In this document: one piece after another, positions 710-5,360 of the stretch | How the letters are laid out: each line of letters opens with the position of its first letter | How positions within the stretch are numbered: the stretch's first letter is position 1 | IMG/VR virus record: IMGVR_UViG_2706794677_000009 | Length of the DNA: 5,360 bases | Origin: a virus | Taxonomy: Duplodnaviria; Heunggongvirae; Uroviricota; Caudoviricetes | Reading direction: 5' to 3' (one strand) | Program-made: the position numbers and the translations under genes | Notes under the pieces: model-generated | The model's database searches: none | What the model was told of the DNA's origin: nothing | The model's input: the letters and a program-made list of their open reading frames with translations, nothing else

Positions 710-1457
<748 letters not shown>

Positions 1458-1515
1458 CGAAAGTATTTAGCGGGCATGAAAATGGCAAATAACGGTCAAA
1501 CATCGTGGCGTTGAC
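1458..1515 (+). mobile_element. Probable right terminal region of the IS21-family element (istB stop to element end, ending ...GTTGACA/C)
   Basis: A ~58-bp segment between the istB stop and the start of the IS2 repeat, ending in ...CA as IS21-family termini usually do. The boundary is inferred and uncertain by 1-2 bp. Confidence 0.4.
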
Positions 1516-1671
1516 ACAATTGCGATCTTTTCCTGTGTGGTACGCCGTCTGCGTTTCTCCGGCCCTAAGACATCAATCATCTGTACTCCAATGACTAGTC
1601 TAAAAACTAGTATTAAGACTATCACTTATTTAAGTGATACTGGTTGTCTGGAGATTCAGGGGGCCAGTCTA
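1516..1671 (-). repeat. Truncated IS2 left end (terminal 156 bp including the inverted repeat and the first ~20 codons of insC); exact direct repeat of 1011..1166
   Basis: Base-by-base comparison of 1011..1166 with 1516..1671 shows identity over 156 bp. The flanking bases differ (1010 a vs 1515 c). Confidence 0.9.
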
Positions 1672-1791
1672 CGGACATTTTCTGCCTGTGGACCAGGAAA
1701 GTGCACGGGTGCTTTCCACTCCCATGAAGCCCGGCAATCCGCGCAGATACAGTAATAAACGAACTGACAGCAGTAAGATGGAGCGTTTCTT

Positions 1792-2049
1792 TTGAACAAC
1801 CAGACAATGACTTTTACCCCTGAACAATTGCGTAAACACGCGCAGGAAATGCTGCGTCATGCTGAACAACTCGAAAAAACGGGCATAACAAAAGACGCTA
1901 TCCGTAAAGATATGGTACCCGCGCTTCGGGAACTGATGCAGGCGAAGCATCGCGCACAGAAAGCAGTAGATGAGCTGGTGGACTGTGTGGCAGAGCTGGA
2001 AACCAGAGTCGGAAAGTTTGAAAAACTGGTGCAGGAGGTGCTGCGCTGA
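1792..2049 (+). CDS. Hypothetical small phage protein (nin-region type, predicted helical/coiled-coil); start is TTG 1792 or ATG 1807
   Basis: Open frame of 85 codons with a GGAG Shine-Dalgarno-like motif (1780..1783) about 8 nt before TTG 1792. Its stop TGA (2047..2049) overlaps the ATG of the next gene (TGATG). Charged, heptad-like sequence. No family recognised. Confidence 0.55.
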   Translation: MNNQTMTFTPEQLRKHAQEMLRHAEQLEKTGITKDAIRKDMVPALRELMQAKHRAQKAVDELVDCVAELETRVGKFEKLVQEVLR

Positions 2050-2423
2050 TGCGCCATGAGTTTATTTTACCTTATCCGCCGACGGTGAATACTTACTGGC
2101 GACGTCGTGACAACACATATTTTGTATCAAAAGCCGGTGAGCGTTATCGCCGGGATGTGGCGCTTATTGTCCGTCAGCAGCGACTGAAATTAAGCCTGTC
2201 CGGAAGACTGGCGATAAAGATTATTGCAGAGCCACCGGATAAGCGCCGTCGTGACCTGGACAATATCCTGAAAGCACCACTGGATGCACTGACACATGCG
2301 GGAGTGTTAATGGACGATGAGCAGTTTGATGAAATCAATATCGTTCGTGGTCAGCCAGTATCTGGTGGACGTCTGGGGGTGAAGATTTACCCCATAATGC
2401 ATGAAGAGCAGGTCAAAAAATGA
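2049..2423 (+). CDS. rusA: RusA-family Holliday junction resolvase (endodeoxyribonuclease RusA)
   Basis: 124 aa. N-terminal LPYPPTVNTYW and the RRRDLDN acidic motif with C-terminal GGRLGVKIY follow the RusA pattern (E. coli RusA has LPWPPSNNRYY ... RRRDLDN). Sits directly upstream of Q, as in lambdoid nin regions. Confidence 0.85.
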   Translation: MRHEFILPYPPTVNTYWRRRDNTYFVSKAGERYRRDVALIVRQQRLKLSLSGRLAIKIIAEPPDKRRRDLDNILKAPLDALTHAGVLMDDEQFDEINIVRGQPVSGGRLGVKIYPIMHEEQVKK

Positions 2424-3274
2424 AACTGGAAGATTTACCGAAATACTACTCCCCAAAATCCCCTTGCCTGACCGATGCATCGGCCTCAACGTCAAAAGAT
2501 GCGCTGAGTATCACTGATGTGATGGCCGCGCAGGGCATGACACAGAATCGGGCTGAGATGGGGTTTTCTGCGTTCCTGGGGAAAATGGGCATCAGTATGA
2601 ATGACAGGGCGCGGGCAACAGAATTACTGGCAGATTATGCACTCAGTCGGTGCGATCGTGTGGCGGCGTTGAGAAAACTTCCGGCAGAAATAAAACCGGT
2701 AGTGATGCGCATTATGGCTTCGTACGCTTTTGAGGATTATGCCCGCAGCGCAGCGAGTAAAAAGCAGTGCCCTTGTTGCTATGGGGAAAAATTTATTGAA
2801 AGCGTAGTTTTTACAAACAAGGTCCAGTATCCGGATGGTAAGCCGCCGGTATGGGCAAAGTGTACGAAAGGTGTGTATCCGTCTTACTGGGAAGAATGGA
2901 AAAAAGTCAGGGAGGTGGTAAAAGTTGCCTGTCCGGAGTGTGGCGGAAAGGGTGAGGTTTCCACCGCCTGTAAGGATTGCCGTGGGCGTGGTGTCGCCAT
3001 TCATCGTGAAGAGTCGGTAAAACGTGGTATGCCTGTTATCAGAGACTGCCAGCGTTGTGGTGGTCGTGGCTATGAAAGACTACCATCAACGGAGGCATTT
3101 AATGCTATATGCGAGGTGACAAACCAGATAACACGCGCGTCATGGGAAAAAACAGTTAAGAAATTCTATGATGCGCTGGTGACTCGGTTTGATATTGAAG
3201 AAGCATGGGCTGAGCGGCAGTTAAAAAAGGTAACTAGGTTGATTTTTCCGGAATCTGTGGTAAATTCGTCATAA
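2420..3274 (+). CDS. Q: Late-gene antitermination protein Q (phage 82 / Qin QuuQ-like family) with a cysteine-rich zinc-binding region
   Basis: 284 aa. The N-terminus (LEDLPKYYSPKSPCLTDASASTSKDALSITDVMAAQGM) resembles my recollection of Qin-prophage QuuQ. Three CxxCxGxG repeats lie at aa 171-178, 184-191 and 210-217. The position (after rusA, before the terminator and tRNAs) is canonical for Q. ATGA start/stop overlap with rusA. Confidence 0.75.
   Translation: MKLEDLPKYYSPKSPCLTDASASTSKDALSITDVMAAQGMTQNRAEMGFSAFLGKMGISMNDRARATELLADYALSRCDRVAALRKLPAEIKPVVMRIMASYAFEDYARSAASKKQCPCCYGEKFIESVVFTNKVQYPDGKPPVWAKCTKGVYPSYWEEWKKVREVVKVACPECGGKGEVSTACKDCRGRGVAIHREESVKRGMPVIRDCQRCGGRGYERLPSTEAFNAICEVTNQITRASWEKTVKKFYDALVTRFDIEEAWAERQLKKVTRLIFPESVVNSS
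3239..3266 (+). promoter_or_regulatory. Candidate late promoter pR' (sigma70-like: -35 TTGATT, 16-bp spacer, extended -10 TGgTAAATT), overlapping the last codons of Q
   Basis: TTGATT at 3239..3244 and TAAATT at 3261..3266 preceded by TG at 3258..3259. A terminator ~45 nt downstream fits the short pR'-tR' unit of lambdoid phages. Hexamer matches are imperfect. Confidence 0.4.
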
Positions 3275-3313
3275 CTATGGGCGTTTTATGCCTGACGTTA
3301 GAAGAGTTTCTAC

Positions 3314-3340
3314 AACCCGCCGCCGAGCGGGTTTTTTATT
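3314..3340 (+). terminator. Intrinsic terminator (candidate tR'): 6-7 bp GC stem ACCCGC/GCGGGT, 6-nt loop, then TTTTTTATT
   Basis: 3315..3320 pairs with 3327..3332, followed by the T-run 3332..3340. Confidence 0.6.
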
Positions 3341-3367
3341 GCGGAATTAATTACGGACCGTTATTAT
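3339..3367 (+). promoter_or_regulatory. Possible promoter for the tRNA genes (-35 TTGCGG, 17-bp spacer, -10 TATTAT)
   Basis: TTGCGG at 3339..3344 and TATTAT at 3362..3367. The -10 ends 10 nt before the mature tRNA 5' end at 3377. The -35 is weak. Confidence 0.3.
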
Positions 3368-3376
3368 TCTGCTCCC

Positions 3377-3452
3377 GGCCCTTTAGCTCAGTGGTGAGAG
3401 CGAGCGACTCATAATCGCCAGGTCGCTGGTTCAAATCCAGCAAGGGCCACCA
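3377..3452 (+). tRNA. tRNA with anticodon CAU, most likely tRNA-Ile2 (lysidine type, decodes AUA); elongator tRNA-Met not excluded
   Basis: Manually folded 76-nt cloverleaf: acceptor GGCCCTT/AAGGGCC, D-arm GCTC-AGTGGTGA-GAGC, anticodon loop CTCATAA, T-arm GCTGG-TTCAAAT-CCAGC, discriminator A, encoded CCA. Close to my recollection of E. coli ileX and of the ileZ gene of Stx phages. Confidence 0.88.
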
Positions 3453-3552
3453 TCACAAACCGCCATTAGCTTATCAGGAAGAGCAGACGACACGATAACA
3501 GGGTTGTTGGTGCGGGGGCGGGTCCCCGATGGCGGTCCATTATCGGTATTCA

Positions 3553-3629
3553 GCGTTGTTAGCTCAGCCGGACAGAGCAATTGCCTTCTAAGCAATCGGT
3601 CACTGGTTCGAATCCAGTACAGCGCGCCA
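3553..3629 (+). tRNA. tRNA-Arg, anticodon UCU (decodes AGA/AGG)
   Basis: Manually folded 77-nt cloverleaf: acceptor GCGTTGT/ACAGCGC (one G-U pair), D-arm GCTC...GAGC, anticodon stem ATTGC/GCAAT with loop CTTCTAA, T-arm ACTGG-TTCGAAT-CCAGT, discriminator G, encoded CCA. Confidence 0.9.
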
Positions 3630-3739
3630 TATTCATTCTTCCAGATTCCTTCCGGCAGAGCCTTATACTGAAATATACCTGGCTCAGGATATTGTTGAAA
3701 ATATTTTATGTTTGTCAAAAATAAAAGTTCTGTTAAGTA

Positions 3740-4093
3740 TTGATTGAGTGTTTGTTATACGGTCTAATGGTTTTTTCAGCATTAAATATTTATCATTCAT
3801 ATGGTGTGGGTAGAGTGAATATTGATGAGGCGTCGGGGTGTTTCATCCTTAGGCAGCGTATTGATATAGTCAATGCAGCACGAGCAAAGGCCTTCAGCCG
3901 TTTGACAGTTTTGTTCTGTACTCCTGATCGTCTTTCGGGAAGAGACGTTATTATTCTGAATAGTGATGCTATACAGAGGGTTTGCGATGAGTTCATGGTT
4001 GCTAATTCAGAATTATTTGCTCTTGTTCAGGAGTACAACAGAATAGCCAGGACCTGTGGTATGGATGAACTTCGGATTACTCATCTGGGGTAG
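3740..4093 (+). CDS. Hypothetical protein (orphan cargo gene, no family recognised); start codon uncertain (TTG 3740, ATG 3767, or an internal GTG)
   Basis: 354-nt open frame in AT-rich DNA directly downstream of the tRNAs. No convincing Shine-Dalgarno or own promoter found. Uses AGA and AUA codons. Stop TAG at 4091..4093. Confidence 0.45.
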   Translation: MIECLLYGLMVFSALNIYHSYGVGRVNIDEASGCFILRQRIDIVNAARAKAFSRLTVLFCTPDRLSGRDVIILNSDAIQRVCDEFMVANSELFALVQEYNRIARTCGMDELRITHLG

Positions 4094-4484
4094 ATACATA
4101 TCTGGATTATCACCTGTTACGGTAAAAAGTGATTGCTTACTGTTTTTGTGAATGGCATTGCAGCAGCCGGATAATGTCAGTGCTGGCTGACGGTGTGCTG
4201 GTGGCGGGTGTGGTGGTTGTTGCTTTCCCGTTGCTGAAAAAGAAAACGCCAGACTGTTAGCCGGGTATCAGTTAGCGGGAGAAATTTTTAAATACTTCAC
4301 AATTCAGGCGGTTGACTGTTGTCTGGTTTGCGGGGAGTTTGTTAAAAGAAACTGGCATGGTGAATCCCCCTGTGCGGAGGGGCAATCAGCGAGTAGGTAT
4401 ATGGGATAATCGCGGATTCAGGTGCTGGTACTGAATTCACCGGGAGGCACCCGGCACCATGCAATGGCACATAGCGCCACTCTC

Positions 4485-4520
4485 CAGCCCCTCTCCGGAG
4501 GGGCTGTTTATATTGATTTT
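4485..4520 (+). terminator. Strong intrinsic terminator: perfect 9-bp GC-rich stem CAGCCCCTC/GAGGGGCTG, 4-nt loop, then TTTATATTGATTTT
   Basis: 4485..4493 is the exact reverse complement of 4498..4506, followed by a T-rich tract on the plus strand only. It lies 21 bp from the stop of the convergent minus-strand gene. Confidence 0.65.
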
Positions 4521-4538
4521 GTCAGATGTGAGTAAACT

Positions 4539-4571
4539 CCTTATGGACTTTGTTGTTTTAGTCCATAAGGA
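4539..4571. repeat. Perfect 11-bp inverted repeat (TCCTTATGGAC ... GTCCATAAGGA) with a 11-nt T-rich spacer, spanning the stop codon of the minus-strand gene
   Basis: 4539..4549 is the exact reverse complement of 4561..4571. Confidence 0.8.
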
Positions 4572-4876
4572 CATATTTGCAGAGTGCAACGGTTATTAAA
4601 GCATTCATTCAATACGTTATCTGTATTTGTAGGGCATTCCTGGCTATTTTTGATTGAATTCCAGAATGTTTTATTGAATGGTACTACGTTGTAAATGGTT
4701 ACAGGTAGCACTTTGTTATTGAGCATGATGCCTGTGTGAGTCAGTGTAAATATACTTTCAGGAGGTAAGAAAGCATCCGATTGATACCAGATTATTAATT
4801 TTATTTTACTCCATATGACTGAAAAAGATATTCCGCATGATGGCTGGATAACTGTATCAATCACAATCCACTTCAT
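4541..4876 (-). CDS. Hypothetical 111-aa protein, Trp/aromatic-rich N-terminal part and C-terminal C-x11-C-x4-C-x4-C cluster; orphan cargo gene
   Basis: ATG at 4876 preceded by AAGGAAA about 6 nt upstream (good Shine-Dalgarno). Stop TAA at 4541..4543. AT-rich codon usage. Promoter-like hexamers lie upstream. No family recognised. Confidence 0.62.
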
Positions 4877-4916
4877 TTAGTTTCCTTGTTTATGCCTTGC
4901 TGGTGATGTTCTGAAA

Positions 4917-4943
4917 AGTATAAATGATATTTTTGAATGTAAA
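4917..4943 (-). promoter_or_regulatory. Candidate sigma70 promoter for the minus-strand gene (-35 TTTACA, 15-bp spacer, -10 TATACT)
   Basis: Minus strand reads TTTACA-ttcaaaaatatcatt-TATACT, about 40 nt upstream of the ATG at 4876. The spacer is shorter than optimal. Confidence 0.35.
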
Positions 4944-5136
4944 CCATAGAGCAGAATTATTTTTCTGATGTTGTTTATTGTTTATTTAAATGCAGGGTGG
5001 TTTATATCTCGTCTTGTAGTTTATCCATGCATATCTGCTTGATAATCAGGTTTTTATTTAAGGTATGGTTTTGTGTTTTTTCTGTATTACATGTCAGGTA
5101 TTTTAAAGAATTATTTTTCAGATGGTGGAAAGAACC

Positions 5137-5310
5137 ATGGCATTTAAACACTATGATGTTGTCAGGGCGGCGCCGCCGTCAGATCTTGCGGAAAAGCTGA
5201 CACATAAACTGAAAGAGGGCTGGCAGCCGTTTGGTAGTCCGGTGGCCATAACCCCTTATACCCTGAGGTGTACTGGCAATAGCGGACACTACCATTTGTT
5301 CTTTTTTTAA
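5137..5310 (+). CDS. Small hypothetical protein (57 aa from ATG 5137); resembles, from memory only, the small conserved prophage ORFs (DUF1737-like) that precede nanS-p esterase genes in lambdoid prophages
   Basis: ATG 5137 preceded by GGTGGAAAG (Shine-Dalgarno-like) and has E. coli-like codon usage. The track's 5122 start lacks a ribosome-binding site. Stop at 5308..5310. The family assignment is an unverified recollection. Confidence 0.5.
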   Translation: MAFKHYDVVRAAPPSDLAEKLTHKLKEGWQPFGSPVAITPYTLRCTGNSGHYHLFFF

Positions 5311-5360
5311 GCAGCCATCTGATGATATTTTTCCCTGAAGGCTGCCGGGGAGATATTCCC

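Follow-up and report, generated by a model that had tools for sequence, protein, structure and literature searches.

The sequence examined here, IMG/VR virus record IMGVR_UViG_2706794677_000009 (Caudoviricetes), is a stretch of 5,360 nucleotides (nt), referred to throughout as the window, and the gene that concerns us, iraL, is read from its minus strand. The iraL coding sequence (4541..4876, minus strand) opens with ATG and specifies 111 amino acids (aa) and a stop codon. The list of open reading frames (ORFs) and the translation agree with an earlier reading of the bare sequence, hereafter the original prediction, which had placed a 111-codon ATG-initiated minus-strand ORF at 4541-4876 and given it a ribosome-binding site and promoter of its own. 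The Shine-Dalgarno sequence AAGGAAA that it named lies at 4881..4887 (minus strand), 6 nt separating GGA from the ATG, and both hexamers are present further upstream: TATACT at 4917..4922 (minus strand) as the -10 element and TTTACA at 4938..4943 (minus strand) as the candidate -35 element, read from the sequence and the same in strain CFT073, with a 15-nt spacer between them. We conclude with high confidence that this 111-codon minus-strand gene is iraL, a paralogue, carried by a prophage, of the RssB anti-adaptor gene iraM of E. coli K-12; it is a real gene but one already characterised, having been named in 2014 and being routinely annotated in RefSeq; the original prediction had recognised no family, while the product is in fact IraL, of the IraM family.

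The assignment is carried by several comparisons. The window protein scores 162 bits against the NCBIfam model of the IraM family, NF007393 (cut-off 121 bits), and the alignment is full-length, spanning protein residues 1-110 and model positions 1-113 of 114. Codons 1-78 (4643..4876, minus strand) encode the PmrD-like beta-barrel domain that contacts RssB, and this N-terminal barrel with its helix was recovered as a match to IraM(1-78) of PDB entry 8TWD at an expect value (E) of 6e-31. Against IraL of CFT073 (WP_000871291.1) the protein is identical at 110 of 111 positions, the sole change being S74 in the window for L74 in CFT073, while identity to K-12 IraM is 61%; at the nucleotide level, the CFT073 iraL coding sequence agrees at 334 of 336 positions and K-12 iraM at approximately 70%. 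Hryckowian et al. (2014; PMC4045071) told iraL from iraM by requiring that the whole coding region agree with that of CFT073 at 95% of nucleotides or more, without overlap with iraM matches, and the window gene lies above that threshold. The same study reported an IraL-IraM identity of 58.9% and placed CFT073 iraL on the potB island (PMC4045071). The protein contains four tryptophans (W3, W22, W30, and W72), and comparison of the coding sequence with its paralogues indicates purifying selection, with a ratio of nonsynonymous to synonymous substitution rates (dN/dS) of 0.12-0.15, where dS is near saturation.

The regulatory region is also conserved. The 5' end of CFT073 iraL mRNA, obtained by rapid amplification of cDNA ends (5' RACE), reads ACATCACCAGCAAGGCATAAACAAGGAAACCA (PMC4045071) and corresponds to the window minus strand from 4909 at 31 of 32 positions, the mismatch falling at 4879. 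This identity places the transcription start at 4909 (minus strand), with a 33-nt leader that contains the Shine-Dalgarno sequence and with the -10 hexamer at -13..-8. A leader of this length agrees with the fragment from -100 to +33 that complemented an iraL deletion (PMC4045071), and across this fragment the window and CFT073 differ at 2 of 133 positions, 4879 in the leader and 4910 at -1, which places promoter and upstream sequence, mapped start included, above the 96% conservation that the study takes as its limit for iraL. A generic sigma-70 scan, limited to spacers of 16-18 nt, returned 2 sites in 4300-5200 versus 3.0 expected by chance, and the iraL promoter was not among them because its 15-nt spacer falls outside the permitted range. 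We considered this miss as an argument against the promoter and rejected it, since the spacer was beyond the reach of the scan and the start has been mapped by experiment; the promoter is real, though a consensus scan could not reveal it. When the upstream region of K-12 iraM was aligned with that of iraL, no meaningful similarity was found.

The function of IraL has been addressed directly. The gene emerged when regulators acting on an RpoS-dependent reporter were screened for; its deletion lowers log-phase RpoS in CFT073 and Shigella sonnei and halves the half-life of RpoS in CFT073, and in two-hybrid assays IraL binds RssB at the N-terminal domain only, whereas IraM binds both domains (PMC4045071). 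Moreover, proteomic analysis of CFT073 detected the IraL protein, which was higher in a fur mutant (PMC7157518). In structural work, IraM(1-78) is a PmrD-like beta-barrel that keeps RssB open but inhibited, with its RpoS-binding face occluded, and the IraM residues touching RssB fall into three clusters (PMC10844676). Ten of 14 such contact residues are identical in the window protein, as is a further contact, Pro66. All five positions of cluster I (I4, I6, W22, K26, and I42), the cluster in contact with the RssB N-terminal domain, are conserved, while the four substitutions (T13S, L75I, H63N, and I64V) are all located in the clusters touching the RssB C-terminal domain and the linker, a sequence pattern that would fit binding by IraL to the N-terminal domain only.

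From these observations a sequence of events may be proposed for the lysogen. During quiescence of the prophage, the sigma-70 promoter of iraL would drive its transcription from 4909, counter to the direction of the late genes, and its 111-aa cytoplasmic product would bind, via the N-terminal PmrD-like beta-barrel, to RssB, the response-regulator-type adaptor by which RpoS (sigma-S) is passed to the ClpXP protease. With RssB blocked, degradation of RpoS would slow and the sigma factor would accumulate even in exponential growth, which in turn would raise the general stress response of the lysogen. By analogy with CFT073 IraL, identical but for one residue, the window protein very probably binds RssB and slows ClpXP-dependent degradation of RpoS. 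Its S74 allele would be expected to behave like the L74 allele of CFT073, and its binding geometry presumably resembles that of the IraM-RssB crystal structure.

Several points weigh against this reading of the locus. S74 adjoins residue 75, an RssB contact in IraM, and the published IraL experiments concern the CFT073 allele with L74, together with the deletion phenotype in S. sonnei. A Pfam-A scan of the window protein returned no significant hit, and no PmrD match at E <=1. A 15-nt spacer between the -35 and -10 hexamers is short for a strong sigma-70 promoter. Lastly, the prophage is decayed, being flanked by insertion sequence (IS) elements and having a truncated DUF1737 gene next to iraL, and any phage-related roles are not to be judged from the window copy. 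Nothing in the window sequence contradicts the identification as iraL.

What the original prediction inferred about expression and setting stands up well. iraL does stand alone, and both its sigma-70 promoter and its ribosome-binding site are its own; the gene is opposed to Q, the tRNAs, and the downstream holin and lysis genes of the collinear prophages of CFT073 and E. coli 042; expression from the resident prophage in ordinary growth is borne out by the 5' RACE, the log-phase deletion phenotype (PMC4045071), and the CFT073 proteomics (PMC7157518); and the gene is cargo, located in the slot between Q and lysis and acting on host physiology. iraL probably affects fitness in the host. The original prediction went further, suggesting superinfection exclusion or abortive infection, and a gene that protects the lysogen against other phages might well be found in a prophage cargo slot and expressed from the lysogen, as iraL is; the corresponding PHROGs entry, phrog_4407, gives only unknown function. 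Nevertheless, a search with the PADLOC-DB 2.0 defence-protein profiles found no family at E <=0.1 for the window protein, and the protein lacks membrane segments as well as nuclease and NTPase domains. The activity that has been demonstrated is inhibition of the ClpXP adaptor RssB, and RssB as target with stabilisation of RpoS fully accounts for the gene. In addition, Citrobacter, Cronobacter, Kosakonia, Salmonella, and other genera have the family on their chromosomes under the name IraM, and we regard a defence function as extremely unlikely. The observation in the original prediction is therefore confirmed, and its interpretation partly supported.

The family's fold raises the separate question of which response regulator is bound, as a PmrD-like connector could act on a partner other than RssB, for example by protecting phospho-PmrA. 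Precomputed Pfam tables do place the window protein and all of its relatives in PF11183 (PmrD). However, over the same domain the window protein is 14% identical to PmrD versus 64% to IraM, most of the RssB-contacting residues of IraM are retained, PmrD lacks the four-cysteine tail discussed below, and RssB binding and effects on RpoS were shown directly for IraL (PMC4045071). A partner other than RssB is accordingly very improbable, and RssB is retained as the target of IraL in what follows.

As to the signals to which iraL may respond, a PhoP-box-like direct repeat, TGTTTAttgttTATTTA (TGTTTA-N5-TATTTA), is found at 4972..4988 (plus strand), that is, at -63..-79 and in reverse orientation, and is a candidate regulatory site. 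Bougdour et al. are said to have found, in 2008, that K-12 iraM is PhoP-dependent. It may thus be asked whether iraL is an IraM-type anti-adaptor under PhoP/PhoQ control, induced mainly, via this repeat, by low Mg2+ or other PhoQ signals, rather than a constitutive log-phase factor. At <=1 mismatch the window contains no match besides this repeat, where 0.13 would be expected by chance per window, and the repeat lies within the -100..+33 fragment that complemented the deletion. The paralogue in the O157:H7 Stx2c prophage (71%-identical) has a comparable box, CGTTTA-N5-TGTTTA, at 4538-4554 (plus strand) of its locus L013, at the same distance of 96-112 nt from the ATG, though the mismatched half-site differs between the two boxes and the chance expectation is 0.13-0.19 per locus. 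The Mg2+-starvation role of K-12 iraM, as described in the structural study (PMC10844676), would also favour such control. Conversely, iraL works in the log phase in lysogeny broth (LB) without imposed Mg2+ limitation, and the study that characterised it makes no mention of regulation by Mg2+ or PhoP (PMC4045071). The region is AT-rich, approximately 1 in 8 shuffled windows yielding such a match, and the box is far upstream and reversed relative to the classic position overlapping the -35 element. Furthermore, PhoP-regulated, Mg2+-responsive K-12 iraM itself has no match at <=1 mismatch, for which reason the pattern predicts poorly and constitutes weak evidence. We consider PhoP control of iraL to be possible but, as matters stand, unlikely; it is a refinement of the identification as iraL and not an alternative to it. 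The conservation of such a repeat upstream of two prophage paralogues nonetheless has a bearing on the way in which the general stress response of a host is adjusted by its prophages.

A further feature of IraL is its C-terminal four-cysteine tail (4571..4636, minus strand). The original prediction had correctly noted four cysteines, but gave the first interval as C-x11-C, one residue too long; the translation reads C81-x10-C92-x4-C97-x4-C102. A family alignment took in 37 members with identities as low as 20%, representing at least six genera; its sole invariant residues are W72, C81, C97, and C102, with C92 and P103 conserved in at least 90% of members. Presence of the four cysteines as a mark of the IraM family is drawn here from this alignment and is not a published criterion; the window protein has all four. 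In the IraM structure, residues 79-107 were removed as proteolysed, and the tail was described as less conserved and flexible; neither cysteine nor zinc is mentioned in that paper (PMC10844676). A literature search found no paper tying IraM or IraL to cysteines or metals, and PDB and Pfam searches gave no match over the tail. AlphaFold2 confidence for the tail (predicted local distance difference test, pLDDT) was <50 with 12 close sequences and 73-76 with the 37-sequence alignment. The nonsynonymous rate dN is 0.19-0.34 in the tail versus 0.12-0.23 in the barrel, and hence a tail that is less conserved overall and cysteines that are invariant are both true descriptions.

We hypothesize, tentatively and as a doubtful rather than a probable case, that the four-cysteine tail of IraL and IraM is more than a dispensable flexible end: it may bind metal, as zinc or as an iron-sulfur cluster, or be sensitive to redox conditions, and its state would then control the stability or activity of the anti-adaptor. 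This suggestion is prompted by the conservation of the cysteines and W72 alone across the family, by the proteolytic lability of the tail in vitro, for which it was removed for crystallography, and by the rise of IraL protein in the iron-deregulated fur mutant; moreover, IraM(1-78) still binds RssB, so the tail would be kept for another purpose. The cluster may fit the four-ligand requirement of small zinc or iron-sulfur domains, and in the cytoplasm a metal site would be more likely than disulfides. If the hypothesis is true, oxidants or the availability of metal would directly affect the stabilisation of RpoS. The original prediction had suggested metal binding or disulfides, an idea that gains in interest now that the cysteines prove invariant throughout the family, in a tail discarded in structural work.

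Facing iraL is a gene for the small RNA STnc100 (4326..4515, plus strand; Rfam RF02076, 132 bits versus a gathering score of 47), which converges on the iraL 3' end, 25 nt separating its own end from the stop codon. A terminator scan identified its GC hairpin at 4485-4506 (plus strand), and since the T run of this hairpin is on the plus strand only, no intrinsic terminator belonging to iraL itself can be recognised. STnc100 likewise converges on an IraM-family gene in loci of O157 and of E. albertii, and in O157:H7 the pair directly follows stx2cB; the GC hairpin is common to the pairings, with its T run on the STnc100 side only; K-12 iraM has no STnc100 neighbour. In all, the convergent arrangement was seen in three prophage contexts, at 132-158 bits and 10-25 nt from the stop codon, the further copies (RF02076) being located at 3897-4108 of locus L013 and at 4362-4550 and 4826-5019 of locus L014. 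We also considered whether STnc100 could be the leader RNA of the Q-dependent late promoter, similar to lambda 6S RNA, with iraL just past tR'. This idea was rejected because in Stx2 prophages the late promoter precedes stx2AB, and STnc100 is located beyond stx2AB in turn. Both the recurrent STnc100 pairing and the four-cysteine tail bear on the tuning of the host general stress response by prophages.

On the plus strand, the window begins with an IS3-family element (1-1167), the 3' part of the IS21 gene istB, and a second copy of the IS end, and continues with an 85-aa ORF, rusA, Q (PF03589 type), a tRNA gene with anticodon CAT, tRNA-Arg(TCT), an ORF of unknown function, and a DUF3927 gene. 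The order ends with STnc100, iraL on the minus strand, and a DUF1737 gene that is cut at about 5267 by another IS3-family element. The potB prophage of CFT073 is collinear with the window, at 98% identity, from the first tRNA gene (about 3340) to 5266. Both CFT073 and E. coli 042 continue on the plus strand with genes for holin, lysozyme, and terminase, which identifies iraL as cargo in antisense orientation, placed after the late regulator and ahead of the lysis cassette.

Several minor features of this region may be recorded. The IS3-family element is reversed and abuts the 3' part of the IS21-family istB (1164-1457), and the istB fragment is flanked by two exact 157-nt copies of the IS end in direct orientation (1011-1167 and 1516-1672); relative to near-identical chromosomes (L005-L011), approximately 2 kb, comprising istA and the 5' part of istB, is gone. 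A terminator-like GC hairpin with a T run is located at about 3316-3345, right after Q, and is followed by the two tRNA genes (3377-3452, anticodon CAT, and 3553-3629, Arg(TCT); both plus strand), the first of which is assigned to Met by ARAGORN and to tRNA-Ile in RefSeq. At this place CFT073 has a third tRNA gene, for Arg, in the middle, where the window has unrelated sequence instead. The interval from the tRNAs to STnc100 contains an ORF at 3740-4093 (plus strand; 108-117 aa), which matches phrog_2873 (unknown function, E 4e-70) and is unannotated by RefSeq in CFT073 and 042, and the DUF3927 ORF at 4129-4260 (plus strand; 43 aa), which matches phrog_1470 (TciB-like). In the stretch 5122-5360, which contains the cut DUF1737 gene, similarity to CFT073 ends at approximately 5267, and an IS3-family transposase gene is next in the near-identical chromosomes; the copies in E. 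coli 042 and CFT073 are likewise annotated as incomplete.

The iraL region recurs among E. coli genomes. By megablast, 1446 of 5426 complete E. coli genomes contain positions 4500-4960 at >=90% identity, in one to three copies each, and these matches bear the label "anti-adapter protein IraM"; 4 phage records contain the region as well. The exact 111-aa protein is encoded on HE616528.1, which we take to be S. sonnei 53G, on CP022457.1, and on other chromosomes, and these loci agree with window positions 1164-5360 to about 99.95%. About fifty full-length relatives were recovered when 1.84 billion representative proteins were searched with a profile, and NCBI applies the name IraM to those in Citrobacter, Salmonella, Cronobacter, Kosakonia, Enterobacter, and Dryocola. 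Long repetitive proteins also appeared in the HMMER search of representatives, but they matched positions 3-45 several times over and were taken as compositional noise. Searching a collection of species-representative genomes with an alignment of the close family located only six loci, all in Escherichia/Shigella; the wider family alignment held no stretch conserved enough for such a search. The PHROGs label of unknown function is an annotation gap through which prophage surveys can take iraL for an orphan, while a scan from raw sequence can evidently find a true lysogen-expressed cargo gene together with its promoter.

Among known systems, one to be compared is the connector protein PmrD (PDB 4HN7 and 2RQX), which protects phospho-PmrA. 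It shares the small beta-barrel and helix fold and a partner of the response-regulator type (PMC10844676), but is 14-19% identical to the window protein, has PmrA and not RssB as its partner, and is without the C-terminal four-cysteine tail. K-12 IraM (b1160; 8TWD with RssB) is of the same family (NF007393) and has the same fold and the same target, RssB, with the four C-terminal cysteines and the cluster I RssB contacts common to both proteins. It differs in that its gene occupies another genomic site, just beyond the annotated end of e14, with an upstream region unrelated to that of iraL, and IraL has four extra C-terminal residues. The two proteins also differ in activity: IraM, a factor of Mg2+ starvation, binds RssB at both domains, while IraL acts in log phase and, in two-hybrid assays, bound the N-terminal domain only.

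Closer still is the IraM-family gene of the O157:H7 stx2c prophage (WP_001303568.1; L013 4119-4442, minus strand), whose protein is 74% identical to that of the window. Its gene shares the slot between Q/tRNA and lysis, the antisense orientation, and the convergent STnc100, but encodes 107 aa, directly follows the Shiga toxin genes, and has a different -35 region and TATAAT in place of TATACT at -10. It sits between stx2cB and a gene for a SASA-family esterase, and our literature search found no paper characterising it. The nearest counterpart is IraL of CFT073 (formerly ycgW; WP_000871291.1; Hryckowian et al. 2014, mBio 5:e01043-14). The CFT073 locus differs in that IS insertions are present on both sides of the window copy and that the window has two tRNA genes versus three. 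Otherwise, the two share the same promoter, mapped start, and leader, and the same neighbours (tRNA-Ile/Arg, DUF3927, STnc100, and DUF1737) within a lambdoid prophage.
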